This document shows, piece after piece, positions 8,318 through 38,125 of a DNA stretch of 64,000 nucleotides. How positions within the stretch are numbered: the first letter of the stretch is position 1; every line of letters starts with the position of its first letter. Source of the DNA: Nitrospirota bacterium (GTDB lineage Bacteria > Nitrospirota > Thermodesulfovibrionia > Thermodesulfovibrionales > JdFR-86); contig JARRLN010000002.1 in assembly GCA_037386965.1 (NCBI GenBank), forward strand, positions 11,443-75,442. Reading direction: 5' to 3'. The notes beneath the pieces were generated by a model. It was not told the DNA's origin, did not search any database, and worked only from the letters and a program-made list of their open reading frames with translations. A program made the position numbers and the translations under genes.

Positions 8318-9658
8318 TTACTCGGCGGCGAAGCTCAGCACATAGTACGACAGGGCCCAAGTGTCGCTCTCGGACTGAAGGAAGCTCCGATACGACGGCA
8401 TGGGGGTCCCGTTCAGCCCGGTCATCAAGGTCCGGAAGATATCCCCCGGCCGCGGGCCCACTTTCCACTGCCCGTTGGTGAAGTTCGCAGGCAGGATGGG
8501 GTTGCCCAGGTCGTCGGTCATACCCACGGCGGCGGGGCCGTCCCCCTCGCCGTCCTTGGCGTGACACTGCCAGCACTGGAATTTTTCGTACAGGTTCTTG
8601 CCGCGCGCAAGCATTGCCGGCGTGGGCTCCGGCGCCTCCGGGACGTAGACGGGCTTTCCGGGCTTCTCCTTCTTGAACGCCGGGGAGAACGTCTTTATGT
8701 ACTGGATGATGTCCCACCGCTCCGACTCCGGCAGCATGTTCCAGGGCGGCATGGCCGTCCCCCGAACACCGATGGTGATGGTCCGGTACAGGTCGGTGTC
8801 CAGGGGCAGCGAGCCCGTGGGCGTGGAGCGGAACTTGAAAACCCCCCGGGTGAAGTTCCGGGGCTTGACTTTCCGGAAGAACCTGGCCGCCGGGCCGTCG
8901 CCTTTCCCGTCCTTGCCGTGGCAGCCCGCGCAGCGGCGATTAAAGCTCTTCTTGCCCCGCGCGAGGGACGCATTGTCCGCGATGGCGTTGGACCCCTCGC
9001 CGGCCAACCGGGAGATATAGGCGTTTCTCCATTTCCCCCGGTTCATCCCCAGGAACTGGACGAAGGCGATGACGGCCTCCCCGTCCTCGTTGGGAACAAA
9101 CTCGGACTCCACGGGAAGGACGCGCTGGCGCTCCCCCTCGGTAAGCTTCCGCCCGGCCTCCTCCTGCTCCTCTTCCGCGGGCTTCTCATACTTCTTGTAA
9201 AACCACGGGAAGCCGGGCATGATGGAGTCGGGCACCACGAGGCGGGGGTTGAAAAAGTGGGCCCGGTGCCAGTCGTCCCCGTACTTGCCGCCCTCGCGGA
9301 TGATGTCGGGCCCTATGCGGCGGGTGCTCATGGTGTGGGGAATGTCGTACGCATACTCTCCCGCCTGAGAGACCGGCCCCCACCTGCGGTCCTCCCCGGC
9401 CACCGGACGGACATACATGGAATGGCAGTACCAGCAGCCCTCCCTGATGAATATCTCCCGGCCACGCTTGACCTTCCCCTGGTAGGGCCGGGCCTCGCCG
9501 TCCACCTCCTGAAGCAGCCCCAGGTCGGTGCGCACCCATGTGGACACCTTGGTCGTGTGCGTGTCCCTGGTGAAGTACGGGATGAGCGCCTGCACCCCGA
9601 TGGCCGCCATGATGAACACGAACCCCGCCGTGAGCGCTATTACTTTCGCCCGCTTCAC
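8318..9658 (-). CDS. ccoO: Fused CcoO-CcoP: cbb3 oxidase monohaem subunit II joined to a dihaem cytochrome c domain (3 CxxCH)
   Basis: N-terminal TM plus CWYCHS and ...GPDIIREGGKYGDDWHRAHFFNPR (the FixO signature). The C-terminal half carries CAGCHGKDGKGDG and CWQCHAKDGEGDG. Confidence 0.8.
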   Translation of the reverse strand: MKRAKVIALTAGFVFIMAAIGVQALIPYFTRDTHTTKVSTWVRTDLGLLQEVDGEARPYQGKVKRGREIFIREGCWYCHSMYVRPVAGEDRRWGPVSQAGEYAYDIPHTMSTRRIGPDIIREGGKYGDDWHRAHFFNPRLVVPDSIMPGFPWFYKKYEKPAEEEQEEAGRKLTEGERQRVLPVESEFVPNEDGEAVIAFVQFLGMNRGKWRNAYISRLAGEGSNAIADNASLARGKKSFNRRCAGCHGKDGKGDGPAARFFRKVKPRNFTRGVFKFRSTPTGSLPLDTDLYRTITIGVRGTAMPPWNMLPESERWDIIQYIKTFSPAFKKEKPGKPVYVPEAPEPTPAMLARGKNLYEKFQCWQCHAKDGEGDGPAAVGMTDDLGNPILPANFTNGQWKVGPRPGDIFRTLMTGLNGTPMPSYRSFLQSESDTWALSYYVLSFAAE

Positions 9659-10983
9659 TTCTTCCCCCTCAGAAGGTTAATGGCAACGAGCGCGATGCCC
9701 GTATCCATCGTTACGCCGGCAAGGGTCCTCATGAGCCAGTAGGGTTTCATGGAGTCCAGGCTGTGCACGAAGAAGACCCCCTGCTTGAGCATGGTCCCCT
9801 GTGCGAGGCCCTGAACGATGAGCCCGAAACCCATGGCCGTGATGCCGACGATAATGAGCCAGGTGCTCCACCGGGCCATGGTGGCGCTGAAGGGCTTGTC
9901 GCTGACGCGCGGCCAGACGTGGTAGCAGGCGGCAAGGGCGAAGACCACGTAGCCGCCGAAGACCGTGAGATGCGAATGGGCGATGACGAAGTCCGTAAAG
10001 TGGGTGGGCGTTTGAATGCTCCTCAGTGCTTCGAAGGAGCCCATCACGCTGCCGAAAAAATAGAAGAACGTGCCCACGACGAGAAGCTTCACGGTAAAGT
10101 TGTCTATGAAGGTGTGCCACCTGCCCTTCAAGGTGCCGTAAAAGTTCACCAGCACCGCCGCCACCGGGATGATGAGCATCAGGCTCGCCGCGATGGCGAC
10201 GGTCTCTGTCCAGTCCAGCACCGGGCTGAAGATGTAGTGGTGTATTCCCACGAAGGGGTAGAAAAGGGCCAGGGACCAGAACCCCAGAAGCCCCAGCCGG
10301 TGGCTGTACAGAGGGTTTCTGGAGGCGGCGGGCAAGAAGAAATAGACGACGGCCAGCCCTGTGGGCGTTATCCAGAGGCCCACCGTGTAATGGATGTACA
10401 GGCCGTGAAGCGAGACGTTGTTGATGCCGGCGACGTGATAGGGAAGAATAAAGTTTCCCACGAAGAGGCTCACGGTGGTCCATACCAGGGCCGCGATGAT
10501 GTACCAGGCCGAGACATAGAGCTTCTCCTCCTTGCGCACGGCCAGGGTCGCCAGAATCTGCACCATGAGGACCGCCACGGCCAGCCACAGGACCAGAGCA
10601 ACGGGCCAGGGGAACTCCGCCACCTCCACCCCGTCGTTGTACCCCAGGGCCAGGGTGACGAACCCCGCGGCCAGACCCAGGTTCCAGAGCCACATGAGGG
10701 GCCGGCCCACGCGCTCCCATTTCATCCGCACCCCTGTTATCTGGGGCACCATGTAGTAGGCCAACCCGATGAACAGGGTGGAGTACAGGGCGAAGATGAC
10801 CCCGTTTATATGCACCGGCCTCAAACGGCCGAATACCGTGTATTCGGTATTCAGGAAGTTCGGATAGTTGAATTTCAGGGAGACCAGGATGCCCACCACG
10901 GGGGCAAAGAAGGACCAGCCGAGACCCCAGAGAAGCCATCCCCTTACCAGAGGCTTATTGACCAGTGTACCTTCCCCGTCCAT
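9655..10983 (-). CDS. ccoN: cbb3-type (C-family) haem-copper oxidase catalytic subunit I
   Basis: 442 aa, 12 TM-like segments. His ligand patterns: RPVHINGV, HGLYIHYTVGLW, GIHHY, AHSHLTVFGG. The stop overlaps the ccoO start. Confidence 0.85.
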   Translation of the reverse strand: MDGEGTLVNKPLVRGWLLWGLGWSFFAPVVGILVSLKFNYPNFLNTEYTVFGRLRPVHINGVIFALYSTLFIGLAYYMVPQITGVRMKWERVGRPLMWLWNLGLAAGFVTLALGYNDGVEVAEFPWPVALVLWLAVAVLMVQILATLAVRKEEKLYVSAWYIIAALVWTTVSLFVGNFILPYHVAGINNVSLHGLYIHYTVGLWITPTGLAVVYFFLPAASRNPLYSHRLGLLGFWSLALFYPFVGIHHYIFSPVLDWTETVAIAASLMLIIPVAAVLVNFYGTLKGRWHTFIDNFTVKLLVVGTFFYFFGSVMGSFEALRSIQTPTHFTDFVIAHSHLTVFGGYVVFALAACYHVWPRVSDKPFSATMARWSTWLIIVGITAMGFGLIVQGLAQGTMLKQGVFFVHSLDSMKPYWLMRTLAGVTMDTGIALVAINLLRGKK

Positions 10984-11082
10984 GTCCCTCCTTTGGATAT
11001 GTGGTCCCCGGGCGCCCGGCTGCGCCCTCTCACGAAGGCACTCACCTTTGTTGCCACGCTTCGTCGGGAGCGGCTTGCTCCC

Positions 11083-11110
11083 ACTTTAACACTCCGAGGG
11101 CAAATGTCAA
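11083..11110 (-). promoter_or_regulatory. Candidate sigma70-type promoter for ccoN (TTGACA-N16-TAAAGT with TGn extended -10)
   Basis: Minus strand reads TTGACAtttgccctcggagTGtTAAAGT, about 100 nt upstream of the ccoN ATG. The -35 overlaps the ccoI stop codon. Confidence 0.35.
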
Positions 11111-13599
11111 GAGGCAAGGGACACCGCCCTCTCGCCCACTCTTTCTCCGCTTGCGGGAGCGCGGCGCCTCTCCACTCCGAGCCTCAGGGAGTTGGCGGCC
11201 ACCACCAGGGAACTGCCCGCCATCAGTGCGGCCGATGCGATGGGATGGATGAGCCCCGTCACCGCCAGGGGTAAAGCGACCAGATTATAGGAGAAGGCCC
11301 AGAAGAGGTTCTGCCTGACGGCCCCAAGCGTGTGGGAGGCTATCTTGAGGAGAGAAGGGAGAAGCCGAAGGTCCTCTCTCAGGAAGACCACGTCGGCGCT
11401 CTTTCGGGCGACGTCGGTCGCCTTACCCACCGCAACCCCCACATGGGCCTCGGCCAGCGCGGCAGCGTCGTTTATGCCGTCGCCCACCATCATCACCCTC
11501 CTGCCCGATTCCCGCAAAGCGCGGACGTATTGCGCCTTCTCGATGGGGGAGGCCCCGCCCCTGATAACGTCCGCCTCCCCGGCGCGTTCTTCCTCGCCCA
11601 GGAGGCCGGCCTCCACAGCCATTGTCCTTACGGCCTCCGGGATATCCCCGCTCCGCACTCGCACGTCCAGGCCCCTCGCCGCGAGGGCCCTCATGACCTC
11701 GCCCGCCTCGGGCCTCGGGGGGTCGGCCAGGGCGAACCACCCGGCAAGCCCGCCATCCTGGGCCAGGCCCACCACGGTCTTCCCCGCCCGGCTCAGGCCG
11801 GCCCGCATGTCTTCCTCCGCGGGCCTCCACGTGACGCCCCGCTCCCTGAGGAAACGCCCGCTCCCCAGCACGACGTTCCGCCCGCCGACCCTGCCCTCTA
11901 CGCCGCCTCCGGGGTGGGCCCTGAAATCCTCCACCGGAAGGAGGCCGCCCTCGGCGGCCCCTGCCAGGGCCCGTCCCAGGGCGTGCTCCGAACGGCTCTC
12001 CAGGGAGGCGGCCAGTAGACGGAGCTCCTCCTCGCCCATGCCCGTGGCCGCCACATCGGTGAGAGCGGGCCGCCCCATGCTCAGGGTGCCGGTCTTGTCG
12101 AAGACGACGACGTCCACCCCGCCCAGGGCCTCCAGCACGTCGCCCCCTCTGAGTAAAATCCCCTCCGAGGAGGCCCGCGAGGAGCCCCTCAGCATGGCCA
12201 TGGGAGTGGCCAGCCCCAGGGCGCAGGGGCAGGCGATGACCAGCACCGAGACGGCGTTCATGAGGGCGGCCGAGGTCCCCACGCCCCGCGAGAGCCAGTA
12301 AAGGAACGTCCCCGCCGCCACAGCGCAGACGGCGGGCACCGCCCATCCCACTACCTTGTCAGCCGCCCTCTGAACGGGGGCCTCCCGTCCCTGGGCCTCC
12401 TCGACCGCGCGGATGACCCGGGCCAGCACGGTGTCTCCGGTTCCCCCGCTGGCCCTGAGCGTGATGCTCCCCGTAAGGTTCGCGGTCCCGGCAAAGACCC
12501 GTTCCCCCGGGGCCTTTCCCACGGGCATGGGCTCGCCCGTAAGCATGGACTCGTCCACCTCGCCGCCGCCGGCCACCACCATGCCATCAAGGGGAACGGC
12601 CTCCCCCGGGATAACCTCGAGGAGGTCGCCCTCCCTGAGGGCAGACAGGGGAACGACCTGCCGCTCTCCGCCGCTCAGGACGGCCCGGGCCTGACAGGGC
12701 TGGAGGGACAGGAGGGCGCCCAGGGCCTCCTGTCCCTTGCCCCTGGCCCCCGCCTCAAGGAGCCGCCCGAAGAGGATGAGGGTGACGATCATCACCGCGG
12801 TGTCGAAGTAGACCTCCCCTCCCCTGAGCACCTGCACGGCACTGAAGGCGTACGCGCTCATGGAGCCCAGAAAGACCAAGGTGTCCATGGTGGCCGCGCG
12901 ATTGCGGATGCCCCGGAGAGTGTGGACGATGAAGGGATACCCGGAGTAAAAGAGCACCGGGGTCGCCAGGGCCCACATGACGGCCTGGATGAGCCTCTTG
13001 GCCCAGGGGTCCATGCCGTCGAAGTAGCCAATGTACAGGGCCAGAGAGAAAAGCATGACCTGAAGCGAGAAAAACCCCGCCGTCCCCAGGCGTATGAGGA
13101 GGCTCTTCCTTTCCCGGGCGATGGCCTCCGCAAAGCCGGAGGAGAAGGCGGGGCGGGGCGAATACCCCAGCGAGCTTATCCTTTCCAGAACGGCCCCGAG
13201 GTCCGTCCTCTCCGGGTCCCAGCGTACCCTTGCCCGGTGGGTCGCGTAGTTGACCCTGGCGGAGGTCACCCCCGCCTGCCTGCCCAGCACACGCTCGATG
13301 AGCCAGACGCAGGCCGCGCACCTTAGGCCCGAAAGCGAGAGGTCCAGTTGTCTTTCGCCCCCTGCGCTCAGGACCTGGTCCTCGAAGAGCGCCGGCGAGG
13401 CGGCCTCGAAGACCGGACGCCCGGGCCTCCATCCCTCCCGAAGGCCGTAGAAAGACGCGAGGCCCTGCCCGCAAAGAAGCTGGTAAACCCCACGGCAGCC
13501 CGTGCAGCAGAACGTCTTGTCGCCTTCCCGGACGGCCCCCGCCCCCGCGGCCTCCCCCAGGCAATGGGCACACGTCGGCGTATGCTCCGGCCTTTCCAT
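11107..13599 (-). CDS. ccoI: Copper-translocating P1B-type ATPase, CcoI/FixI-like
   Basis: N-terminal CAHC...FCCTGC metal-binding domain, HMA domain with CAAC, CPC (VIACPCALGLATP), DKTGTLS, GDGINDAAALA. Sits in the cco cluster. Confidence 0.85.
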   Translation of the reverse strand: MERPEHTPTCAHCLGEAAGAGAVREGDKTFCCTGCRGVYQLLCGQGLASFYGLREGWRPGRPVFEAASPALFEDQVLSAGGERQLDLSLSGLRCAACVWLIERVLGRQAGVTSARVNYATHRARVRWDPERTDLGAVLERISSLGYSPRPAFSSGFAEAIARERKSLLIRLGTAGFFSLQVMLFSLALYIGYFDGMDPWAKRLIQAVMWALATPVLFYSGYPFIVHTLRGIRNRAATMDTLVFLGSMSAYAFSAVQVLRGGEVYFDTAVMIVTLILFGRLLEAGARGKGQEALGALLSLQPCQARAVLSGGERQVVPLSALREGDLLEVIPGEAVPLDGMVVAGGGEVDESMLTGEPMPVGKAPGERVFAGTANLTGSITLRASGGTGDTVLARVIRAVEEAQGREAPVQRAADKVVGWAVPAVCAVAAGTFLYWLSRGVGTSAALMNAVSVLVIACPCALGLATPMAMLRGSSRASSEGILLRGGDVLEALGGVDVVVFDKTGTLSMGRPALTDVAATGMGEEELRLLAASLESRSEHALGRALAGAAEGGLLPVEDFRAHPGGGVEGRVGGRNVVLGSGRFLRERGVTWRPAEEDMRAGLSRAGKTVVGLAQDGGLAGWFALADPPRPEAGEVMRALAARGLDVRVRSGDIPEAVRTMAVEAGLLGEEERAGEADVIRGGASPIEKAQYVRALRESGRRVMMVGDGINDAAALAEAHVGVAVGKATDVARKSADVVFLREDLRLLPSLLKIASHTLGAVRQNLFWAFSYNLVALPLAVTGLIHPIASAALMAGSSLVVAANSLRLGVERRRAPASGERVGERAVSLAS

Positions 13600-14366
13600 C
13601 AGCCCAGCGCCCTCACGAGGATGAGCACCCCCATGAGAACGACGATACCCCCCGAGACCGCGGACAGCCTCTTCCTTGCCCGCTCACCCAGGAGCCCGGC
13701 CACCTTGCCGAAGGCCGCCAGGGGGGCCACCGTCCCCAGGCCGAAAAGAAACATCAGGGCCATGCCGCTTAAGAGGGCCGCTCCGTGAGTTTGGGCCTCC
13801 ACGCCCATCCCCAGGGCGGTCATCAGGACCGAATAGACCAAGCCGCAGGGCAGAAAACCCAGGGCCACACCCATGGGATAGAACGTCCCCACCGACGCCT
13901 CGCCCGCGAAAAGGCCCACGAGCCGCCCAAGTACGGGGAGACGCCCCACCCCTCTTTCGAGGTAGCCGGCCAGAGGCAGCCATCCCGCCGTGCTCGCCCC
14001 CATGAGGACGACGAACACCCCCGCCAGGGCCATGGGCATCTTCCCGAGCCAGTGCAGATGCTCCGCCGGGAGAACCCCGGCGGCCGTCACCGAGAAAGAG
14101 CCCGCGAGTGCCACGCCAGCCCCGAGGAGCACGTAGGTGGTTATTCTGCCGGCGTTATAAAGCGCGTGGGGAAGAAAGCTCCTGGCCGGCAGGACCAGCG
14201 AATAGGACGCCACGATGGGGCCGCACATGCCGATGCAATGGCCCAGGCCTCCGGTGAGTCCGGCAGCCAGGGTCAGGAGATAGATTTCCGGCATGCCCCA
14301 AGCGTACCGGAAAAAGAAATGACGGGCAAGCGCACCGGAAGAGCCTTCGCCGGGCTGTGTTACCAT
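13599..14366 (-). CDS. DsbD_2/TauE-like membrane protein with HCxxMCGP motif (cco-cluster accessory)
   Basis: GLGHCIGMCGPIV motif, about 6 TM. The stop overlaps the ccoI start by 1 nt (TGATG). An alternative start at 14294 (MPEIYLL) is equally plausible. Confidence 0.65.
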   Translation of the reverse strand: MVTQPGEGSSGALARHFFFRYAWGMPEIYLLTLAAGLTGGLGHCIGMCGPIVASYSLVLPARSFLPHALYNAGRITTYVLLGAGVALAGSFSVTAAGVLPAEHLHWLGKMPMALAGVFVVLMGASTAGWLPLAGYLERGVGRLPVLGRLVGLFAGEASVGTFYPMGVALGFLPCGLVYSVLMTALGMGVEAQTHGAALLSGMALMFLFGLGTVAPLAAFGKVAGLLGERARKRLSAVSGGIVVLMGVLILVRALG

Positions 14367-14391: not shown

Positions 14392-14946
14392 GTGGCGGAG
14401 ACATCATACAAGAAGTGGATATTGGGCCTAGTCCTTCTTCTCCTGGTGGGCGGGGCCGTCCTCGTGCTCACCGGCCTGCCTCGCCGGGGAGGGGAGCGGG
14501 AGCCCCTCGTCCCGGCGGCACCGGCAGAGGGATTTGCGGCGAAGGAGCGGAACCTGCGGGAGCAGATCCGGAACAGCCCGGAGCGGGCGGAGCTTTACGC
14601 GAGCCTGGGCGACCTGTACTTTGAGCAGCAGGATTTCGCCCGCGCGGCGGACGAATACGAAGAGGCCCTCAAGCGAAATCCGCAGGACGCGGACACCTAC
14701 AACGACCTGGGGCTGGCCCTCCACTACCTGGGGCAGGAGGACAAGGCCGTCGAAACATTGAGAAAAGGAACGGACGCGGACCCCTCCTACCAGCGTATCT
14801 GGCTCTCCCTGGGGTACGTCCTTCTCTCAAGCGGCAAAACCAGGGAGGCCCGGGATGCCCTAGAGAGAGCCGTCGAGCTGGGCCCTGAGACCACGATGGG
14901 CAGGGAGGCCCGGAAGTTCCTGCAGGGGCTGCCCCCGGCCCAATAA
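14392..14946 (+). CDS. Membrane-anchored TPR-repeat protein
   Basis: N-terminal TM WILGLVLLLLVGGAVLVLTG, then TPR-like repeats (AELYASLGDLYFEQQDFARAADEYEEALKRNPQDADTYNDLGLAL...). GTG start. Confidence 0.65.
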   Translation: MAETSYKKWILGLVLLLLVGGAVLVLTGLPRRGGEREPLVPAAPAEGFAAKERNLREQIRNSPERAELYASLGDLYFEQQDFARAADEYEEALKRNPQDADTYNDLGLALHYLGQEDKAVETLRKGTDADPSYQRIWLSLGYVLLSSGKTREARDALERAVELGPETTMGREARKFLQGLPPAQ

Positions 14947-14968
14947 GGCTTGCTTCGAAGAACCGGCC

Positions 14969-15967
14969 TCACCTTTTCCGTGGCGGCGCTTTCAGCCTCT
15001 GCACCGCCGTCTTTACCCTCTGGCGGGAGAAATCCCTCTCCTCGCAGAGAAAGCGGTAAACCCCTTCCTCGTCGGGCTCTTCGAAGGAGATGCCGTAGTC
15101 GTCCGTCACCTCGGGGCGCAGAAAGACGTCCCTTATTTCTTCGTAGCGCTCCGTCACCTTCCTCCCGACCTCGGCGGGAAGGTCCTCCAGGCGCCCGTGT
15201 TTCTTTAACAGGTTAAGGGCCGTCTTGGGACCGATGCCCCTGATGCCGGGGTTGAAGTCCGTCCCCATGAGGATGGCCAGGTCCACGAGCTGCTCCCTGC
15301 TTATGCCCAGCTTGTCCAGCATTCTCCCGGCATGGATTATCTCGGGGACGAGGGGGCGGGAGATTCCCTTGCTGGGGAGGCGCTCCCTGCCGGTGAAGGT
15401 GACGAACCTGACCAGGCGCGGCGCCCCGAAAAGAAGGGAGTCGAAGTCCTTGCTTCCCACGGCCCAGGCGTCCCCCCACGAGGCCATGTGGGCGGCCTGC
15501 GCTTCGCCCTCCCCCGGCGCCTGAACGAAGGGAATTCCCAGAAGGGCCAGGAGGCGTTTGGCATCCTCGGTCATCGAGGGGGTAAGCCGCGAGGTCATCA
15601 CGGCCTTGGAATAGGCCTCCGCGAGGTCTCCCCGCGCCCGTGCCTCCCGATACTCCCGCTCGTACCGCTCCCTCAGCCGCCGCCTCCCGGCCAGGACCTC
15701 CCGTTTGAGCCGCGGGGGCTTCCCGTCGAACACGAAGACCAGCCGGGCCCCGTGCTCGCTCACGAGCCGGGTAGAGCGGTACAGAAGGCCCACCAGGTGG
15801 GAGGTAACGTTGCCGCGGGAGTCCCGAAGCGGGGTGCCGTCGGGCTGGCGAATCAGGGCCAGAAACTGATACAGCTCCGCGTTTCCGTCCACGGCCAGGA
15901 CCCTGTCGCGGAGGGCCTCAAGAGTGCTCTCCTCCCTGAGGGCGATGGGTGCGAGGTTCACTCCCAT
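14969..15967 (-). CDS. fen: Flap endonuclease FEN1 (archaeal/eukaryotic XPG/Rad2 type), lacking a C-terminal PIP box
   Basis: MGVNLAPI..., LAVDGNAELYQFLALIRQPDGTPLRDSRGNVTSHL, FVFDGKPP, QAPGEGEAQAAHM, GSKDFDSLLFGAP, ILMGTDFNPGIRGIGPKTA. Collinear with archaeal FEN-1. ATG 15967 is preferred over the ORF-track start at 16000. Confidence 0.85.
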   Translation of the reverse strand: MGVNLAPIALREESTLEALRDRVLAVDGNAELYQFLALIRQPDGTPLRDSRGNVTSHLVGLLYRSTRLVSEHGARLVFVFDGKPPRLKREVLAGRRRLRERYEREYREARARGDLAEAYSKAVMTSRLTPSMTEDAKRLLALLGIPFVQAPGEGEAQAAHMASWGDAWAVGSKDFDSLLFGAPRLVRFVTFTGRERLPSKGISRPLVPEIIHAGRMLDKLGISREQLVDLAILMGTDFNPGIRGIGPKTALNLLKKHGRLEDLPAEVGRKVTERYEEIRDVFLRPEVTDDYGISFEEPDEEGVYRFLCEERDFSRQRVKTAVQRLKAPPRKR

Positions 15968-15974
15968 ACCGGCC

Positions 15975-17645
15975 TTACGCCTCCGCGGGCCGGGGCGCAA
16001 GCTGTCCCCTGTAAATTTTCCCGATGCTCTGGATGGTATCGGCCTCGCGGGGGGTCTTGTCCTCCCTCAGGCGGGCGATGCGGGCAAACCGGAGGGCATA
16101 GCCTCCCCGGTAACGGGGGCTTCTCTGGATGTCGGAGAAAAGCACCTCCACCACCACCCGGGGCTCCACGAAGACGGTGCCTCCGCGCTCGCCCCTCTTC
16201 AGGGCCAGAAGCCGCCTGGTCATCTCCTGAAACTCCCCATCCGTAAGGCCCTTGTACGTCTTTCCCACCATGACGAGCCCACCGCTTTCCTCGTCGCGCG
16301 CCGAAAGGTGGTAATTGCTCAGCCAGCCCCGTCTCCGCCCGTAGCCCCACTCCGCAGCCGTGATGACCAGGTCCAGGGAGATGGCTTTCTTCACTTTGAG
16401 CCAGAGCCCGCCCCGCATCCCCGGCCTATAGGGCGAACCGAGGGCCTTGGCCAGAAGCCCCTCGAAGCCTTCGTCCACGGCCCTCCTGAAGAAGGCTTCG
16501 CCCTCGGCCAGGCTCCGGGGCACGATGCGGGGGGCGAGGGACAGGCCCGTCCGGCGCAGGGCCTCCCAGCGCTCGGCGTAGGGGAGGTCTACGAGGAGTG
16601 AGCCGTCCTTGTAAAGGATGTCAAAGAAGAAAACCCGCACGGGAAGCTCCTCAATCATCCGCTTGAGGTCCCTTTTCCGCCCGAGCCTCCGGCTCAGGAC
16701 CTGAAAAGGCAGGGGACGGCCGTCCCTGTCCAGGGCCGCGACCTCGCCGTCCAGGACCGCGCTTTCCAGAGCGAGCGCGCTCCGCACGTCGCGCACAACC
16801 TCGGGGAAGACCGGCGTCAGGTCGCTCAGGCTCCGGGAGTAAAGGCGGCAATTCCCCGCATCGCAGTGCGCCTGGATGCGGGCGCCGTCTATCTTGTACT
16901 CCAGGGAAAAGGGAGCCTCCATGGCCCCGAAGACCTCCGCCACGTCCGTTGCCATCTCGGCCAGCATGGGCTTGACCGGCCGGAAAAGGCGGATGCTCTC
17001 TTCCCCGAGCCCTTCGGCGCCCCGGGCAATGGCCACCCCGGCCACGCGGCCCACGTCACCCGTGAGCATGTTGGCCCGGCGGAGAAGCTCGCCCTCGATG
17101 CCCAGGGTGCGGCCCAGCGACTCCAGGACCATGCCCTCCTCCACGCCGTGGCGCATCTCGCCCACCACGGCCTTGGCCAGGCACTTGGCCTCCAGGGGAC
17201 TGGCGCGGGCGAGGAGCCCCCTCAAGAGGTCGAGCTTTCGCGCCCGGGAGCCCGGCCCCGCAGCCCCGGCTATCTCCTCCAGGGCGCGGTAGACGCCGGA
17301 AATGGTAAGCCCGCCGCCCTCAGGGCGGTGCCCGCCCTCCTTGAGGAGGATGCGGACCGCCTCGCCGAAATCGGCCGCCCTGCGGAAGGCGTCCTCCACC
17401 CGGTCCCGGGTGAGAACGAGGAGGCCCGACAGGGCCTCGAAAAACGACGAGCCGCTTATGTTCAGGGTGCGGTGGTCGGCTTTGGGAAAGACGTCGCCCA
17501 GGACGAGGTGGACGGCGACGGGGACCTCCTCCGAAGGAAGCTCCATAAGAAATTCTCCCAGGAGCCGGGAAAGCTCCGTACGCTTCTTCGTCCTCTCCAG
17601 CTCCCGGCACAGGCCGGCGAGCCGGGCAAAAGGGGTCTCATCCAT
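15975..17645 (-). CDS. lig: ATP-dependent DNA ligase, three-domain Lig1/archaeal type
   Basis: 556 aa. Motif I EYKIDGARIQAH (KxDG), N-terminal DNA-binding domain, OB-fold C-terminus (LRFARIARLREDK). The stop lies 7 nt before the fen start. Confidence 0.85.
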   Translation of the reverse strand: MDETPFARLAGLCRELERTKKRTELSRLLGEFLMELPSEEVPVAVHLVLGDVFPKADHRTLNISGSSFFEALSGLLVLTRDRVEDAFRRAADFGEAVRILLKEGGHRPEGGGLTISGVYRALEEIAGAAGPGSRARKLDLLRGLLARASPLEAKCLAKAVVGEMRHGVEEGMVLESLGRTLGIEGELLRRANMLTGDVGRVAGVAIARGAEGLGEESIRLFRPVKPMLAEMATDVAEVFGAMEAPFSLEYKIDGARIQAHCDAGNCRLYSRSLSDLTPVFPEVVRDVRSALALESAVLDGEVAALDRDGRPLPFQVLSRRLGRKRDLKRMIEELPVRVFFFDILYKDGSLLVDLPYAERWEALRRTGLSLAPRIVPRSLAEGEAFFRRAVDEGFEGLLAKALGSPYRPGMRGGLWLKVKKAISLDLVITAAEWGYGRRRGWLSNYHLSARDEESGGLVMVGKTYKGLTDGEFQEMTRRLLALKRGERGGTVFVEPRVVVEVLFSDIQRSPRYRGGYALRFARIARLREDKTPREADTIQSIGKIYRGQLAPRPAEA

Positions 17646-17737
17646 CGCATGAAAAGTTTTTTTCTTTCACTCTACCACCCCGGCCGGATGAAAGAAAGAA
17701 ATGCCGGGGCAGGCGGAAGACGGGGATGCTCCGCTTC

Positions 17738-17763
17738 TTGACAGCCACACCCCGTTTTGATAG
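17738..17763 (+). promoter_or_regulatory. Promoter-like element TTGACAGCC-N9-TTTGATAG, ending 9 nt before the GAF-protein ATG
   Basis: Perfect -35 hexamer. 17 of 26 positions are identical at identical spacing to a second copy at 59650..59625 (minus strand). Confidence 0.4.
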
Positions 17764-17772
17764 CTTTCGGCT

Positions 17773-18837
17773 ATGGAAGCAGGCAAGTTCTGCACGCCCG
17801 ACATGTGCTCCCTCTGCGAAGAGATTGCCTCGGCGTACGGACTGGACGAGACCCTGAACGTGCTGGCCCGGAACATGGCAAACGCCCTGAACGCCAGGGC
17901 CTGCGCCATCTATCTCTTCGAGCGGGAGAAGCTTTCCCTCGTGCCCGCCGCCTCCCACGGCCTCCCAATTGGCCTCCTCCCGAGCGGTCCCCGCCCTGTG
18001 AAGGAGGGCTCGATTGAGCTCAGGGTGCTCGGGGGAGAGGTGGTGGACGTCCCGGACATCGCGGGAAGGTCCGACGTCCTGGACGGCGAAGCCCTGGCGT
18101 CGGCCGGCGTGCGGTCCGCCTCTTTCCACTGCCTCCGGGTGCGAGGCAGGGCCCTGGGCCTTGTGGCGGTGTACAGCGACGCACCCCGGGAGCTTTCGGA
18201 GGTGGAGAGGAGGACGGCCCGGACCCTGACCTCCCTGGGCGGGGTCCTTGCAGACAGGGCGACCATCTGGGAGAGGATGGAAACCCTCATCGAGACGGCG
18301 CGCTCCCTGAGCTCCACGCTCTCCCTGGACGAGGTCCTGGGCAGGCTCGTGGAGCGGGCGGCGGAGTCCCTGGACCTCAAGGCCGCTTCCATCAGGCTCC
18401 TGGGCCCCGAGAGGGAGAGGCTTGACATCAGGGCCACCTACGGGCTGAGCGACGCCTATCTGGCCAAGGGACCCGTGGAGGTGGCCAGAAGCCCCCTGGA
18501 CAGGGAATGCATCGCGGGCAACGTCGTCGAGATATCCGACGTCGAGCGCGACGGGAGGCTCCAGTATCAGGAGGCCATCCGGGAAGAAGGCATAGGGGCG
18601 CTGCTTTCCGTCCCCCTCACCTCGCGGGGCACGGTGCTCGGCGTCCTCAGGGTCTATACGGCTCATCCCTACAAGTTCTCCCGGTCCGAGGTCGATTACA
18701 TCTCCGCCCTGGCAAGCCACGGGGCGGCTGCCATCGAGAACGCGCGCCTCTTCGAGCACATCCAGAAAGAGTACGAGGAGCTGACCAGGGATGTCTGGAA
18801 ATGGTACGACTGGGGTGCGCGCTTCCCCCGGATGTAA
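17773..18837 (+). CDS. Tandem GAF-domain protein with no recognisable output domain
   Basis: 354 aa with two GAF-like halves (ALGLVAVYSD... and VLGVLRVYTAHPYKFS...). N-terminal Cys triad C-x4-C-x2-C. Confidence 0.65.
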   Translation: MEAGKFCTPDMCSLCEEIASAYGLDETLNVLARNMANALNARACAIYLFEREKLSLVPAASHGLPIGLLPSGPRPVKEGSIELRVLGGEVVDVPDIAGRSDVLDGEALASAGVRSASFHCLRVRGRALGLVAVYSDAPRELSEVERRTARTLTSLGGVLADRATIWERMETLIETARSLSSTLSLDEVLGRLVERAAESLDLKAASIRLLGPERERLDIRATYGLSDAYLAKGPVEVARSPLDRECIAGNVVEISDVERDGRLQYQEAIREEGIGALLSVPLTSRGTVLGVLRVYTAHPYKFSRSEVDYISALASHGAAAIENARLFEHIQKEYEELTRDVWKWYDWGARFPRM

Positions 18838-19876
18838 GGCCGTCCTCACGCCCAAGGAATCATTGCCGGGGCTCCTGGACTCCCTGCGCCCCGCATACGG
18901 GCTTGCCGGCCCGGTCCCCTTGGGAGAACAGACCGTCTTCAGCCGCGTGGACTCCGCCGGGCAATTGAAGATGGACTATTCCTCCACCATGGCTCCTCCG
19001 GGGAAGCTCTTCCTTTATCCGTCCAGGGAGAACATTCTCCGGTTCCGCACCGAAGGGGAAAGCGCGGAGGTGGAGAGTTTTCCGGCGGAGACGGCCAAGA
19101 CGCTGCTCCTCGGCGTGCACGCCTGCGACGTACACGCCGTCGTTTACCTGGACAAGGTCTTTCACAACGACCCCTTCTACCGCGCCAGAAGGGAAAATAC
19201 TCTTCTGGTGGCCATCAATTGCACGGAGCCCACCCCCTTCTGCTTTTGCTCCTCCGTGGGGACGGGCCCTTTCCTCAGGGCCGGGGAAGGCTATGACGCG
19301 GTGCTTACGGACCTCGGCGAGCACTACCTGGTGGAGCTCGTAAGCGACAGGGCCGGGGACCTTCTGCGCATCGAGGGCGAGGCCGTGGGAGAGAACGTCT
19401 GGCGGCGGAAGGCCGCGCGGGAAGAAGAGGTGCGCGGGAAAATCACCAAGAGGATGGATGTGGAGGGCCTGGACGAGCTTCTTCTTCGGAACACGGAGCA
19501 TCCCGTCTGGTCGGAGACGGCGGACAGCCGTTGCCTCTCCTGCGCCAACTGCGTGATGGTCTGCCCCACCTGCTTCTGCCACGACATCGTGGACCGCGTG
19601 GACATGGCGCTTACCGAGACCGTGCGCTTCAGGCACTGGGACGCCTGCCAGGACCAGAAGTTCGCCGCCGTGCACGGGGGCAACTTCAGGCGCACGCGGG
19701 CCGCACGGCTCAGGCAGTTCGTCATGCACAAGCTCGACTACACGGCCCAGTTCGACACCATGGGCACGGTGGGCTGCGGGCGGTGCATCCAGTGGTGCCC
19801 CACGCGCATCGACTTGACGGAGATGGCCAAGGAGATACAAAGGAGCCCCGGTGAAAAACCTTCTCTTGCCCGATAA
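18791..19876 (+). CDS. hyhB: Group 3b [NiFe]-hydrogenase beta subunit (AsrA-like 4Fe-4S protein)
   Basis: CLSCANCVMVCPTCFCHD and CGRCIQWCP clusters. First gene of a four-gene sulfhydrogenase-type set. Start uncertain (ATG 18791 overlaps the GAF gene by 47 nt; GTG 18815 is possible). Confidence 0.7.
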   Translation: MSGNGTTGVRASPGCKAVLTPKESLPGLLDSLRPAYGLAGPVPLGEQTVFSRVDSAGQLKMDYSSTMAPPGKLFLYPSRENILRFRTEGESAEVESFPAETAKTLLLGVHACDVHAVVYLDKVFHNDPFYRARRENTLLVAINCTEPTPFCFCSSVGTGPFLRAGEGYDAVLTDLGEHYLVELVSDRAGDLLRIEGEAVGENVWRRKAAREEEVRGKITKRMDVEGLDELLLRNTEHPVWSETADSRCLSCANCVMVCPTCFCHDIVDRVDMALTETVRFRHWDACQDQKFAAVHGGNFRRTRAARLRQFVMHKLDYTAQFDTMGTVGCGRCIQWCPTRIDLTEMAKEIQRSPGEKPSLAR

Positions 19877-20666
19877 GGCGGTCATAAGGGACATCAGGCG
19901 GGAGACCGGGGACGTCCGCACGTATACCCTCTCTTTGGAAGGAGACAGCCTTCATGCCCTGCCGGGGCAGTTCAACATGCTCGGATGGCCCGGCGTGGGC
20001 GAAGCACCCATCTCCGTGAGCTCGCTGCACGGCCCGGAGGGCATCCAGCACACCATACGGGCCGTGGGAAGGGTGACCAACTTCCTCGCCTCCATGGCCG
20101 AGGGTGACGAAATCTTCATCCGGGGCGCCTACGGGAGCCCCTGGCCCCTGAGGAACGCCGAGGACATGGAGCTTGTCCTGGTGGCCGGCGGCCTGGGGAT
20201 GGCGCCCCTGAGGCCCGTGGTGCAGTCCATCGTGCGAGGCGAACACCGGCCCGGAGACGTCACCCTCGTCTACGGGGCCCGCGACCCCCTGAGCATGCTT
20301 TTCAGGGACGAGCTGGACGGCTGGCGGAGACACTTTCGCCTGCACCTTACCGTGGACGAGGTCCCCGAGGGCGTCCCCTGGGACGGGGGGGTGGGCCTGG
20401 TCACCGAGTACATGGAGGACGTGGCGCAAAGGCCGTCGCAGGCCGTCGCCTTTCTCTGCGGGCCCGAGATCATGATGCGCTTTGCCGCCCGAAAGCTCCT
20501 CATGAAGGGCATGCCCCCGGGGCAGATATACGTCTCCATGGAGCGGCGGCTCAAGTGCGGCATCGCACAGTGCGGCCACTGCCAGCACGGAAGCGCCTTC
20601 GTCTGCAAGGACGGGCCCGTCTTCCGCTACGGCGACGTCGGCAGGTTCCCCGACGGCCTGCTTTAA
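19851..20666 (+). CDS. hyhG: Group 3b [NiFe]-hydrogenase gamma subunit (FAD/NAD(P)-binding, 2Fe-2S; AsrB-like)
   Basis: Ferredoxin-reductase-type fold (LVLVAGGLGMAPL) and C-terminal CGIAQCGHCQHG...C cluster. GTG start. Confidence 0.75.
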   Translation: MKNLLLPDKAVIRDIRRETGDVRTYTLSLEGDSLHALPGQFNMLGWPGVGEAPISVSSLHGPEGIQHTIRAVGRVTNFLASMAEGDEIFIRGAYGSPWPLRNAEDMELVLVAGGLGMAPLRPVVQSIVRGEHRPGDVTLVYGARDPLSMLFRDELDGWRRHFRLHLTVDEVPEGVPWDGGVGLVTEYMEDVAQRPSQAVAFLCGPEIMMRFAARKLLMKGMPPGQIYVSMERRLKCGIAQCGHCQHGSAFVCKDGPVFRYGDVGRFPDGLL

Positions 20667-20686
20667 AGGGCGCGCCAACCAACGCA

Positions 20687-21484
20687 ATGGAGAAGACACC
20701 GAACATGCAGCCGCGGAGAAAGCCCCGCCTGGGGTTCTTCAAGTACTCCTGCTGTGCGGGATGCGAGTTCACGCTCATCTTCTTCCAGAGGCGCATCGTG
20801 GAGACCCTCCGGGGCTTCGACTTCGCCTATTGCCGCATGGTCTCAAGCGCGGGCACGCCCGAAGGGCCCTTCGACCTCGCCCTGGTGGAAGGCACCATCA
20901 CCGAGGCCTGGCAGGCCGACGAGCTCAAGAAGATACGCCGGAGGAGCCGCCTTTTGCTGGCCATCGGCTCCTGTGCGGTAAACGGCGGCATACCCGCCAT
21001 CAAGGCCACGCATCCCGAGGACGACGTCCAGCGGCGGGTCTACCGGGACCTCGAAAACATCCATTCCATCCGGCCCCACGCCCTTGACGCCTATGTGCGC
21101 GTGGACGGCGAGATAAAGGGCTGCCCTCCCGGGGAGCGGGACCTGGAGGAGGCCCTCACTTCGGTGCTCATGCAAAAGAAGCCCGATTTCCTCGAGTACA
21201 GCGTCTGCATCGAGTGCAAGGCCAGAAACAACATCTGCATCCTGGTGGCCCACGGGATGCCCTGCATGGGGCCGGTGACCAACGCCGGCTGCGGCGCCCT
21301 CTGCCCCTCGAACCAGAGGGCGTGCTACTCCTGCTGGGGACCGATGAAGCAGGCCAACGGGCTGGCCCTGGCCAGGACGTTCGAGGCCCTGGGCCTTTCG
21401 CCGGAGGACATCGTGGGAAAGTTTACCCTGTTCGGCGCCGACACCGTACAGTACCGGCAGGTGCGGGAGCACTATGAAGCATAA
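20687..21484 (+). CDS. hyhS: Group 3b [NiFe]-hydrogenase small (delta) subunit
   Basis: MEKTPNMQPRRKPRLGFFKYSCCAGCEF... NuoB-like proximal-cluster cysteines and distal CIECKARNNIC ... C clusters. ATG 20687 chosen inside ORF 20555..21484. Confidence 0.8.
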   Translation: MEKTPNMQPRRKPRLGFFKYSCCAGCEFTLIFFQRRIVETLRGFDFAYCRMVSSAGTPEGPFDLALVEGTITEAWQADELKKIRRRSRLLLAIGSCAVNGGIPAIKATHPEDDVQRRVYRDLENIHSIRPHALDAYVRVDGEIKGCPPGERDLEEALTSVLMQKKPDFLEYSVCIECKARNNICILVAHGMPCMGPVTNAGCGALCPSNQRACYSCWGPMKQANGLALARTFEALGLSPEDIVGKFTLFGADTVQYRQVREHYEA

Positions 21485-22724
21485 GATAGCCTATCTGGCC
21501 CGCGTGGAGGGCGAGGCCGCCGTCACTTTCGAGATTAAGGACGGCAAGCTCTCCGAGCTGGTCCTGAACATCTGGGAGCCCCCCCGGTTTTTCGAGGGGT
21601 TTCTCGCCGGGCGCACGTTCGACGAGGTCCCGGACATCGTGGCCCGCATCTGCGGGATATGTCCCATATCGCACATGACGACGGCCATCCGCGCCCTTGA
21701 GAGGGCCTTGGGGCTCGAGCCGCCTCCCCAGACGGTGGCCCTCCAGGAGGTGATGGCCCTGAGCCAGATAGCGGCCAGCCACCTGGTGCACCTTTACATG
21801 CTTGCCCTCCCGGACTTCCACGGCATGGCCTCGGCCGCGGAGCTCCTGCCCCGTTTCGAGGGCGAAGTCGGAAGGTTCCTCAGGATGAAGGAAGTCCTGA
21901 ACGATGCAAGCGCGCTTTACGGCGGCAGGGCGCTGCATCCCGTATCCATGGTGGTGGCCGGTTTTACGAATCCCCCGTCGCAAGACCGGGTGGGGGACAT
22001 CGTAAGGAGACTCGAAGGCATAAAGGCCGACGCCCTGGAGACGGTGAAAATGGTGGCGGGGCTCCCGGTGCCGGACCTCACGAACGAAGCCGAGTACGCC
22101 GCCCTCAAAAGCGCGAACCGTTACGCCGTCAACGCCGGGAGGCTGGCCTCAAGCGGAGGCATCGACGCGCCCGAGGAGGACTACCCGGAGTACATCGAGG
22201 AAACACAGGTGCCCCACGCCAACGCCAAGCGGAACATGGTCAAGGGACGGGGGGCCCTGATGGTGGGGGCCTTGGCCAGGACGAACCTGAAATTCGCACA
22301 GCTCCATGACGACGCCAAGGCAGCCGCAGCCGGTGTGGGCTTCGGTCCGCCGGCGGACAACCCCTTTTTGAACAACCTGGCCCAGGCGGTGGAGGTGGTG
22401 CATGTCCTGAGCCGCATGATAGAGATACTCGCGACCCTTCCGGGCGGGCGGCCCTGGGTGGAGGTCCGTCCCCGGGAGGGCGAGGGCTCCGCCCTGACCG
22501 AAGCTCCCCGGGGCCTTCTCTTCCATTCCTACACCCTCGACCGGAGGGGCCACGTGGTCAGGGCCAACATCGTGACGCCCACGGCCCACAATTTCATGGG
22601 GCTGGAGGAAAACCTGAGAAAGCTCATCGAGAAACACGCCGGGGAGGAAAAGGACGAGATTGCCCTCCTCTCAGAGATGCTCGTCCGGGCCTACGACCCC
22701 TGCTTTTCCTGCTCCGTACACTGA
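21474..22724 (+). CDS. hyhL: Group 3b [NiFe]-hydrogenase large (alpha) subunit
   Basis: N-terminal RICGICPISH and C-terminal DPCFSCSVH Ni-Fe ligand motifs (both Cys, no Sec). 416 aa. Confidence 0.9.
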   Translation: MKHKIAYLARVEGEAAVTFEIKDGKLSELVLNIWEPPRFFEGFLAGRTFDEVPDIVARICGICPISHMTTAIRALERALGLEPPPQTVALQEVMALSQIAASHLVHLYMLALPDFHGMASAAELLPRFEGEVGRFLRMKEVLNDASALYGGRALHPVSMVVAGFTNPPSQDRVGDIVRRLEGIKADALETVKMVAGLPVPDLTNEAEYAALKSANRYAVNAGRLASSGGIDAPEEDYPEYIEETQVPHANAKRNMVKGRGALMVGALARTNLKFAQLHDDAKAAAAGVGFGPPADNPFLNNLAQAVEVVHVLSRMIEILATLPGGRPWVEVRPREGEGSALTEAPRGLLFHSYTLDRRGHVVRANIVTPTAHNFMGLEENLRKLIEKHAGEEKDEIALLSEMLVRAYDPCFSCSVH

Positions 22725-23691: not shown

Positions 23692-25110
23692 CTAGGGGCC
23701 TCCCAGGCTCAACGCCTGGATAACCGCGATGAGGGAGCCAGGATAGACCCCGAACCACAGGAGGGCGAGGGCCAGGACGCCGAGGACCAGGCTCTCTCCC
23801 GCTCCGGCCAAAACCCGCTCCCCGGGGGCTGCCGGGGCATAGAGGGCAGCCACGATGCGCAGATAGTAGTACAGGCCGATGCCGCTGTTTACAAGGAGCG
23901 TCACTACCAGGGCCCAGTGGGCCGCGCCGACTCCGGCGGCAATGACATAGAACTTTCCGATGAATCCCGCCGTCAGGGGGATGCCCGCGAGGGAGAAAAG
24001 GACGAAGGTAAAAACACCGCCCAGCCACGGGCTCCGGCGGAAGAGCCCCCGGTACTCGTCGAGATGGCCCGTGCGCCGCTGTGCTTCGGAGAGGACCGTC
24101 ACCACGCCGAAGGCCCCGAGCATGGTCACCACGTAGGCGGTGATGTAAAACGTGACGGCCGTCGTCCGCATCTGGCCGCTTGCCAGGAAGGCCACCAGGA
24201 TATAGCCCATGTGGGCGATGGACGAGTACCCGAGAATGCGCCTGACGTTCTGCTGCCTGAGGGCCAGCAGATTGCCCACGAACATCGAAAGCACGGCGAT
24301 AACCGCCAGGACCGCAAAGAGGGGACCCGTCTCCGCAAAGCTCAGGCCCGAGAAATAGCGCACAAGAAGGGCGAACATCGCTCCCTTGGATATGGTGGCC
24401 ACGTAGCCCGCCACCGGGGCGGGGGCCCCCTCGAAGATGTCCGGCGTCCACATGTGAAAGGGGGCCACGCCCAGCTTGAACCCCACCCCGACGACCACCA
24501 TCCCCATGCCCGTCAGGGCCAGGGCCGACCCGGGGTGGGAGAGCCTCGAGGCCAGGGCGGCAAACTCCATGGTGCCCGCCTCCAGGTAAAGAAGGGCCAT
24601 CCCGAAAAGCAGAAAGGCCGACGAAACTCCCGCCAGGACGAGATACTTTACGCCGGCCTCTATGCCGGGCTCGTGCGCGCGCCGGTACCCGATGAGGGCG
24701 TAGAGCGAGACGCTCAGTATCTCCAGCCCGAGGAAGAAGGAGGCCAGGTGGGCCGCGGCCACCAGGACCATGGAGCCCAGGGAGGCCAAGAGAAGCAGTA
24801 TGTAGTACTCCTCGCGGATGCCGCCCCCCCTCTGGATGACGCCGTAGGACATTATGGCCACGGCCAGCGCGGAGACCAGGATGAGGGCGAGGTAGAAGAC
24901 CGCGTACGTGTCCAGGACAAGCAGGCTCGTCACCGGGTGCGGCAGGCCCGATAGTGAGCTCAGGGAGGCCGCGGAGAAGAAAAGCGCCGCCGCCGTGAGG
25001 CCGAAGGTCAGGTCGTAATGCCGCTTGACCGCCAGGGCGAGCATGACCAGGACCGGGGCGGCCCCCATGATGAGAAAGGGGATGAGGGGCAGAAGGTCAT
25101 TTGCTCTCAT
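23692..25110 (-). CDS. nuoN: NADH-quinone oxidoreductase subunit N
   Basis: 472 aa antiporter-like subunit and last gene of the nuo array. The start overlaps the nuoM stop. Confidence 0.9.
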   Translation of the reverse strand: MRANDLLPLIPFLIMGAAPVLVMLALAVKRHYDLTFGLTAAALFFSAASLSSLSGLPHPVTSLLVLDTYAVFYLALILVSALAVAIMSYGVIQRGGGIREEYYILLLLASLGSMVLVAAAHLASFFLGLEILSVSLYALIGYRRAHEPGIEAGVKYLVLAGVSSAFLLFGMALLYLEAGTMEFAALASRLSHPGSALALTGMGMVVVGVGFKLGVAPFHMWTPDIFEGAPAPVAGYVATISKGAMFALLVRYFSGLSFAETGPLFAVLAVIAVLSMFVGNLLALRQQNVRRILGYSSIAHMGYILVAFLASGQMRTTAVTFYITAYVVTMLGAFGVVTVLSEAQRRTGHLDEYRGLFRRSPWLGGVFTFVLFSLAGIPLTAGFIGKFYVIAAGVGAAHWALVVTLLVNSGIGLYYYLRIVAALYAPAAPGERVLAGAGESLVLGVLALALLWFGVYPGSLIAVIQALSLGGP

Positions 25111-28491: not shown

Positions 28492-28495
28492 GCCG

Positions 28496-29319: not shown

Positions 29320-29338
29320 GCCTGCCCCTTTCGCTCCC

Positions 29339-29854: not shown

Positions 29855-29861
29855 GAATCTT

Positions 29862-30815: not shown

Positions 30816-30817
30816 GG

Positions 30818-33523: not shown

Positions 33524-33524
33524 C

Positions 33525-35284: not shown

Positions 35285-35309
35285 CCCGTCTTCTCCCGCA
35301 AACGACGGT

Positions 35310-38124: not shown

Positions 38125-38125
38125 C

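Follow-up and report, generated by a model that had tools for sequence, protein, structure and literature searches.

A 64-kb stretch of DNA from a Nitrospirota bacterium, here called the window (the whole stretch that was analyzed), carries on its minus strand two adjacent genes, one for an ATP-dependent DNA ligase and one for a flap endonuclease of the FEN1 type. The upstream gene (15975..17645) encodes a ligase of 556 residues with DNA-binding, nucleotidyltransferase and oligonucleotide-binding (OB) domains, as assigned by Pfam, by the TIGR00574 model and by a match in the PDB; its class label is the archaeal-like ligase known in bacteria as Lig B. The downstream gene (14969..15967) encodes a FEN of 332 residues with the N and I nuclease regions, a helical arch and a helix-three-turn-helix (H3TH) segment. 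Between the TAA of the ligase gene and the ATG of the FEN gene lie the seven nucleotides GGCCGGT (15968..15974), the junction reads GCG TAA GGCCGGT ATG GGA, and the same spacer was found in a near-identical twin contig described below. A preliminary description of this DNA had given these gene positions and this spacing, with the FEN gene downstream of a three-domain ligase gene, and the open reading frames (ORFs) together with the junction confirmed them. All peptides quoted there were also present: DGNAELYQFL, QAPGEGEAQAA, GSKDFDSLLFGAP, GTDFNPGIRGIGPKTA and the end ...QRLKAPPRKR in the FEN, and the motif I string EYKIDGARIQAH in the ligase.

The mechanically listed ORF of the FEN (14969..16000) begins with a TTG at 16000 and would overlap the ligase gene. 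This start was dropped because every homologue begins with MGV; the start supported by the homologues is the ATG at 15967, from which the protein reads MGVNLAPI. An AAGG sequence is located at -9 to -6, five nucleotides before this ATG. In a pattern scan, neither the junction nor the space between the ligase and FEN genes gave a predicted terminator; all matches lay inside coding sequences, where they were no commoner than in shuffled controls. Given the seven-nucleotide spacer and the lack of an internal terminator, co-transcription of the two genes is implied, and translational coupling is possible. Upstream of the ligase gene, a 127-nucleotide intergenic region (17646..17772), common to it and to a divergently oriented gene for a GAF-domain protein (17773..18837, plus strand), is presumably the promoter region of the operon. 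No sigma-70 consensus was found at 17646..17772, in a scan that is uninformative for Nitrospirota. At the other end, a 22-nucleotide gap (14947..14968) between the FEN stop codon and a convergent TPR gene (14392..14946, plus strand) marks the end of the two-gene unit.

By all criteria tested except the PCNA-interacting peptide (PIP) box, the FEN of the window is a bona fide FEN1, with flap cleavage as its predicted activity. It scored 416 bits on the equivalog model of archaeal FEN (TIGR03674, fen_arch), above the curated cutoff of 351.95 and with residues 1-328 covered, and the Pfam matches XPG_N (PF00752), XPG_I (PF00867) and the H3TH segment (PF01367) followed in the expected order. Over its whole length it aligned with archaeal FEN-1 proteins of solved structure, reaching E=1e-95 with P. 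horikoshii FEN-1 (1mc8), and it was 36% identical to human FEN1. These results bore out the archaeal-type identity proposed in the preliminary description.

All seven catalytic acidic residues, whose absence had been named there as a ground for rejecting the assignment, are present. When compared with the active-site residues listed for the human enzyme (PMC5499597), D27, D81, E153, E155, D174, D176 and D237 correspond to human D34, D86, E158, E160, D179, D181 and D233, the arch residues K88 and R95 to K93 and R100, and the stacking residue Y33 to Y40. The span from D27 to D237, including K88 and R95, is encoded at 15257..15889. The acidic residues, K88 and R95 were invariant in alignments of 121 and 39 sequences; in an alignment of 86 sequences they were again invariant except E153, which was conserved in at least 90%. 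Y33 was nearly invariant in the 121-sequence alignment and invariant in the other two. The AlphaFold2 model of the FEN had a predicted local distance difference test score (pLDDT) of 91.4 and a predicted template modeling score (pTM) of 0.89, and contained an ordered helical arch (helices 88-111 and 115-123). Its top Foldseek match was 1rxw, the DNA-bound FEN-1 of A. fulgidus, with template modeling (TM) scores of 0.89/0.96 and a root-mean-square deviation of 1.6 A.

The ligase is likewise intact. Pfam placed DNA_ligase_A_N (PF04675) at residues 5-177, the A_M domain (PF01068) at 226-419 and the A_C domain (PF04679) at 438-530, and the superfamily model TIGR00574 (dnl1) was matched with 308 bits against a cutoff of 218. 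Its closest equivalog was the Mycobacterium-type LigB, yet the score on that model (NF002868, PRK03180, M. tuberculosis LigB type) was 468 bits, below the equivalog cutoff of 641. Full-length matches with Thermococcus and Pyrococcus ligases were found at E of about 1e-124 (E=3e-124 for the Thermococcus ligase 4eq5). The adenylated lysine in motif I is K251 (codon 16893..16895), and the positions of E249-Y-K251-I-D253-G254 (KxDG) were invariant in 46 sequences.

Bacteria have no PCNA, the sliding clamp on which these enzymes work in archaea. Judged from the alignments, both proteins of the window have lost their PCNA-docking motifs after descent from archaea. The FEN ends with ...QRLKAPPRKR and the PIP box Q-x-x-[LIM]-x-x-[FWY]-[FWYL] is missing, whereas all its archaeal neighbors in the tree keep it. 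The tail APPRKR (14972..14989) is short, basic and predicted to be disordered; these last six residues were disordered in the AlphaFold2 model, with a pLDDT of 44 for the last residues. The absence of a PCNA-interaction motif from the FEN, as claimed in the preliminary description, therefore held, and it extended to the ligase. The P. furiosus ligase binds PCNA via 103-QKSFF-107 in its DNA-binding domain (PMC6212441, PMC13136779). At the aligned position, Bathyarchaeia ligases linked to a FEN gene have Q-x-x-L-F or Q-x-x-L-I, whereas the window ligase has GGHRPEGGG (residues 104-112, 17310..17336) and the bacterial LigB clade a sequence like G-F-x-P-S-G-E; of the 26 bacterial LigBs that the alignment displayed, 25 lacked the motif. 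Neither the FEN tail nor the C-terminus of the ligase contained a beta-clamp motif (QL[SD]LF or QLxLxL). The FEN has a single Q-[FL]-x-[LA]-L string, QFLAL at residues 34-38, which lies in a buried core helix and is also found in archaeal FEN1. The loss of both motifs agrees with enzymes that have ceased to rely on PCNA, which is to be expected in a bacterium.

The contig is bacterial rather than chimeric. Records of metagenome-assembled genomes (MAGs) named 'Nitrospirota bacterium' include the exact sequences of the FEN (MEJ2182354.1), the ligase (MEJ2182355.1), NuoCD and NuoL, these proteins occur on six to seven contigs of up to 154 kb, and the names 'flap endonuclease-1' and 'ATP-dependent DNA ligase' given by the PGAP annotation pipeline are already on record. 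An independent JGI contig of 9.8 kb (L093) was 99.3% identical and had the same gene order of hydrogenase, GAF, ligase, FEN, TPR and DsbD; between it and the window, the ligase and FEN genes showed 18 synonymous and 9 non-synonymous codon differences. The neighbors in the window are bacterial, namely fused NuoCD, NuoG, NuoL, NuoN, a cbb3-type oxidase, IlvB, a [NiFe] hydrogenase and two-component regulators. GC content was uniform across the window (0.60-0.69), and the GC content at third codon positions (GC3) of the ligase and FEN genes was 0.84-0.85, equal to that of the genome. An archaeal or chimeric contig, which the preliminary description had named as an objection to its reading, was ruled out on these grounds. 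No tRNA or Rfam element was found in the window, and no integrase or transposase near the pair. A viral or mobile origin was also ruled out, since the best viral FENs were at most 30% identical and lay on giant-virus contigs and no mobile genes were nearby, as was anti-phage defence, with zero PADLOC matches for the FEN or the ligase.

Other than the 99% identical twin, the best homologues of the FEN were 60-65% identical and of two kinds. The first kind has 326-341 residues and ends just past the last helix, with Candidatus Brocadia and Casimicrobiaceae among the source names; the second has 342-356 residues, comes from Bathyarchaeia and ends with Q-x-x-L-x-x-W-[FL]. A profile built from the shorter proteins found many more, including sequences from Terriglobia, and a scan of GTDB species representatives added Vicinamibacterales, other Acidobacteriota and Brocadiaceae. 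Clustering at 90% identity gave at least 120 bacterial FEN1 clusters without a PIP box in at least four phyla, their carriers including Nitrospirota, Acidobacteriota, Casimicrobiaceae and Brocadia. In neighbor-joining (NJ) trees of the core alone, from which the tail was left out, the sequences without a PIP box formed one clade, and this clade was grouped with specific FENs of Bathyarchaeia and Hermodarchaeota with a bootstrap of 100/100. We noticed some irregular cases in this family. In 64% of bootstrap replicates the archaeal-labelled sequence L035, in which the PIP box is degenerate (RRLEDFG), entered the bacterial clade. Two FEN1 copies per MAG were seen twice, L014 with L021 in Vicinamibacterales SMAG_U10128 and L035 with L036 in Euryarchaeota G01_MAG_00007, and the FEN of the Brocadiaceae locus L038 is seemingly truncated, with about 156 codons before a stop as extracted.

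The window ligase fell in a clade of 48 bacterial LigBs, whose source names include Betaproteobacteria and Anaerolineae. This clade was sister to the archaeal ligases linked to a FEN gene, and the Thermococcus ligase and a second Bathyarchaeia ligase lay outside, a placement that is suggestive. Both genes were thus apparently acquired from Bathyarchaeia-like archaea. The FEN and ligase trees therefore supported the horizontal acquisition proposed in the preliminary description.

Pairing of the two genes was found in both domains. In the archaeal FENs that group with the bacterial clade, the ligase gene directly follows the FEN gene on the same strand, with a spacing of -7 to +27 nucleotides. 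This fen-lig order was present in about 12 GTDB loci (L012, L015, L016, L018, L020, L022, L027, L034, L037, L039, L042) and about 20 metagenome loci (including L109, L117, L119, L120, L126, L128, L133-L139, L142, L153, L155, L156 and L160), all Bathyarchaeia-like. Other Bathyarchaeia FENs, located elsewhere in the tree, had no adjoining ligase gene. The lig-fen order of the window was present in three further bacterial loci, L005, L009 and L024, so the pairing that the preliminary description had reported is conserved elsewhere, and in reverse in about 30 archaeal loci. In L005 (GCA_976014235.1, contig CDMAWN010000032.1, 1..9983) the two genes overlap by 4 nucleotides. This contig carries bacterial MetK and phospholipid genes, a PolX gene 4 kb upstream of the pair, and, 0.8 kb downstream with a 5-formyltetrahydrofolate (5-FTHF) cyclo-ligase gene between, an archaeal-type Hel308 helicase gene (828 bits, PRK02362); the stretch from PolX to Hel308 resembles a small island of repair genes of archaeal type. 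The gap was 24 nucleotides in L009 and 0 nucleotides in L024, from Vicinamibacterales. The ligase of L024 belongs to a different lineage, being 40% identical to that of the window and passing the PRK03180 cutoff with 644 bits. Pairing with two ligase lineages and tight spacing throughout suggest that the linkage was selected and is not a passive relic.

Two other loci were handled separately. In Candidatus Brocadia L007 (JBKBTA010000142.1, 1..301), a ligase fragment of 52 residues (residues 404-455) lies upstream of the FEN gene at the contig end, which makes an ambiguous example of the lig-fen pair. L023 (DATKOK010000147.1, labelled Candidatus Methylomirabilota) was dropped as a bacterial pair: its FEN bears a PIP box, the ligase gene is downstream, and diphthamide synthase and EF-2-like genes are present. 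Because of the diphthamide synthase and the PIP-bearing FEN on the contig, it is probably archaeal DNA mis-binned into a bacterial MAG.

The tails of the bacterial FENs differ in a way that might bear on clamp binding. Among 123 non-redundant FEN1s without a PIP box, 59 were almost tailless and 64 had tails of at least 5 residues. Nearly half of the tailed proteins (30 of 64) end with L[FW], L[PG]F, or L[FW] plus one to three residues, following a variable linker rich in P, S, G and Q, as in ...AFRERTLF, ...VSMGKLF, ...AAPRLPF and ...PPRLLF. The consensus is ...[S/T/K/R]L[F/W]-COOH or ...LPF-COOH; the FEN of the window has no such tail. Proteins with LF tails include P0007, P0016, P0020, P0038, P0068, P0098, P0116, P0249, P0255 and P0298, and loci with them include L006, L008, L021, L024, L025, L108, L110, L122, L123, L125 and L131. 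Such tails were spread over several subclades, and in one of these dnaN lies some 5 kb away from the FEN gene. At their final three positions they agree with [SD]-L-F of the beta-clamp motif QL[SD]LF, but not at positions 1-2 (Q-L); the LF tail may have taken over docking as a substitute motif, or it may be what is left of a PIP box that decayed. A broader proposal, which we put forward only tentatively and consider rather doubtful, is that the archaeal Okazaki pair was domesticated in several bacterial phyla and rewired off PCNA, with an LF-COOH peptide docking FEN1 on the beta-clamp in some lineages (Vicinamibacterales, Terriglobia and the lineage near dnaN) and the operon-linked FEN1 and LigB acting as a clamp-free cut-and-seal complex.

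For the window itself, the interpretation we favor, with moderate confidence, is that the ligB-fen1 operon of archaeal descent, having lost its PCNA motifs, encodes an accessory, clamp-independent repair pair that cuts flaps and seals nicks. Since the families are conserved, the chemistry would be a flap cut followed by ATP-dependent nick sealing. The reaction would begin with a 5ʹ strand displaced by a gap-filling polymerase, or with a 5ʹ end containing RNA or damage. The 5ʹ flap would be threaded through the helical arch of FEN1, and the enzyme would cut one nucleotide into the duplex by two-metal catalysis at the seven acidic residues, leaving a ligatable nick. The three-domain LigB would then encircle the nick and seal it via a K251-AMP intermediate. 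Co-transcription would deliver the two enzymes together, and a sliding clamp would not be needed. The most likely roles are long-patch base excision, removal of ribonucleotide or primer remnants or of damaged 5ʹ ends, and gap repair. The preliminary description had inferred from the two genes a self-contained module for Okazaki-type or long-patch repair, which the pair may be.

Bacterial ATP-dependent ligases are reported always to occur alongside LigA, and Lig B is able to seal nicks by itself (PMC7470946). Because LigA is reported to be always present, the distribution is sporadic, a clamp motif is lacking, and genes for PolX, Hel308 and endonuclease III (Nth) adjoin relatives elsewhere, the role is probably accessory repair alongside Pol I and LigA and not the main replicative pathway.

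Several observations weigh against this interpretation. The lig-fen pair is recurrent yet a minority arrangement: about 25 further bacterial FEN1 loci had no ligase gene in their flanks, and four of the seven LigB loci inspected had no adjoining FEN gene, one of these abutting an endonuclease III gene. Linkage is thus clearly not required for the two enzymes to function, or at any rate to be kept. Near the pair, the window contains no gene for a polymerase, a glycosylase or another repair enzyme. The bacterial gene order is inverted relative to that of archaea. Strict monophyly of the bacterial FENs had weak bootstraps in the NJ trees (22-34/100), reaching 70/100 if the rogue sequence L035 may intrude, so we claim an archaeal, Bathyarchaeia-like origin but not a single transfer. 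Archaeal sampling in the ligase tree was sparse, which leaves the placement of the LigB clade short of conclusive. With both of these limits, transfer of the ligase and FEN genes together as a pair is plausible rather than demonstrated.

The unlinked loci would be expected if the two proteins were independent accessory enzymes without coupling, whose adjacency was inherited from archaeal synteny and whose FEN acted alone, for example on R-loops, flaps or 5ʹ ends, like Xni/ExoIX. Most bacterial FEN1s and most LigBs of the clade are indeed unlinked, and the presumed donors also have the adjacency, so that it could be a relic. The order was, however, inverted from fen-lig in archaea to lig-fen in bacteria while the spacing stayed tight in all four bacterial cases, and L024 pairs FEN1 with another ligase lineage, which argues for selection on the pairing; we consider this explanation unlikely. 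Lower still in probability, and in our view quite unlikely, is a role in lagging-strand maturation, with the pair backing up or replacing the Pol I 5ʹ-nuclease and LigA after recruitment to the replisome without a PIP box. The archaeal homologues are replicative enzymes of Okazaki maturation (PMC3914693, PMC6212441), and both the bacterial FEN1 ends resembling the C-terminal part of the beta-clamp motif and the FEN gene near dnaN in one lineage would suit such a role. The LF tails, however, lack Q-L at the canonical positions 1-2, neither the APPRKR tail of the window FEN nor the ligase has a clamp-like motif, and the sporadic distribution in bacteria, together with the reported constant presence of LigA beside ATP-dependent ligases (PMC7470946), does not suit a main replicative pathway. 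The idea that the pair is an artefact or foreign DNA, whether a mis-binned or chimeric archaeal fragment, the cargo of a virus or mobile element, or an anti-phage system, is effectively refuted: mis-binning does occur in this gene family, as in L023, but here the pair lies within 64 kb of bacterial genes of uniform GC and GC3 and was assembled repeatedly with identical flanks, and the searches for mobile genes, tRNAs, defence systems and close viral FENs gave nothing in its favor. An accessory flap-cutting and nick-sealing pair remains the interpretation that we prefer.

Other parts of the window were annotated as well. On the plus strand at 17773..22724, the gene for the GAF protein, which has a double GAF domain, is followed by a four-gene cluster for an NAD(P)-linked [NiFe] hydrogenase (Fer4_22, NAD_binding_1/DHODB, Oxidored_q6 small subunit and NiFeSe large subunit). 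A cbb3-type oxidase region on the minus strand (8318..14366) encodes a CcoN-like subunit of 442 residues, a CcoO of 446 residues fused to extra cytochrome c domains, a heavy-metal (copper) P-type ATPase of 830 residues with a Cys-rich N-terminal domain, and a DsbD_2 membrane protein. A fusion protein of 832 residues (38126..40624, minus strand) joins an N-terminal part resembling cytochrome b6 to several c-type cytochrome modules; its gene is immediately upstream of the nuo operon (23692..38214), in which NuoCD is fused and NuoG has 901 residues. Five ORFs, at 41020..41904 and 43212..43835 on the plus strand and at 58045..59541, 54403..55005 and 52964..53449 on the minus strand, had coding-like GC3 and no Pfam match at E<=1e-5; in the first of them, GC at first codon positions reaches an unusual 0.84.

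In textbooks, FEN1 and Lig1 mark the replication machinery of archaea and eukaryotes, and bacteria are taught as users of the Pol I 5ʹ-nuclease and LigA. A sizeable and conserved clade of bacterial FEN1s means that some of the tools that archaea use on the lagging strand passed into bacteria and were retained. It offers a natural experiment on how clamp-dependent enzymes adapt to a host with a different clamp, and on what flap processing bacteria need beyond Pol I. Compact and possibly clamp-independent pairs of FEN1 and ligase from mesophiles could also serve as reagents. Even if the two genes do no more than accessory repair, they add to the known gene contexts of Lig B. In the literature searched, which was covered incompletely, we found no description of an archaeal-type FEN1 in bacteria, of a LigB-FEN1 operon, of the fen-lig linkage in Bathyarchaeia or of a link between the beta-clamp and FEN.

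Compared with the archaeal and eukaryotic FEN1-Lig1 system on PCNA, the pair of the window belongs to the same enzyme families, with complete domains, catalytic residues and fold and with flap cutting followed by nick sealing as the predicted chemistry. It differs in its bacterial host, which has no PCNA, in lacking a PIP box and a QKSFF-type motif, and in being presumably accessory and not essential for replication. In archaea, FEN passes the DNA to Lig on PCNA (PMC6212441). The Bathyarchaeia-like fen-lig pair includes the closest archaeal relatives of both proteins, 50-60% identical for the FEN and 42-52% for the ligase, and its genes are likewise immediately adjacent on the same strand, but it has the opposite order and retains the PCNA motifs (Q..L..W[FL] in the FEN and Q..LF in the ligase).

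The ligase shares the archaeal-like DNA-binding, nucleotidyltransferase and OB domain architecture of the bacterial Lig B class (Williamson et al.; M. tuberculosis LigB; PMC7470946). This class is thought to have been acquired from archaea and is carried by Acidobacteria, Chloroflexi and Actinobacteria (PMC7470946). A gene cluster of Lig B with an Lhr helicase, a metallophosphoesterase and an exonuclease was described for the proteobacterial type (PMC7470946), and none of these cluster genes was found within the 64-kb window; here the partner of the ligase is FEN1, a context not mentioned in the Lig B papers. The PolA-family 5ʹ-nucleases (the N-terminal domain of Pol I, Xni/ExoIX and FenA) share with the window FEN the PIN-like/H3TH superfamily and 5ʹ-flap cleavage, which is a predicted activity of the latter. 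They are built on 5_3_exonuc_N instead of XPG_N/XPG_I, and the window FEN matches them only over the H3TH segment. In the mycobacterial LigC-PrimPolC module, a primase-polymerase takes the place of the nuclease as partner, and the ligase has a minimal, two-domain build. The module nevertheless resembles the proposed LigB-FEN1 pair in joining, in one operon, an accessory ATP-dependent ligase and an end-processing or gap-filling partner for repair alongside LigA.

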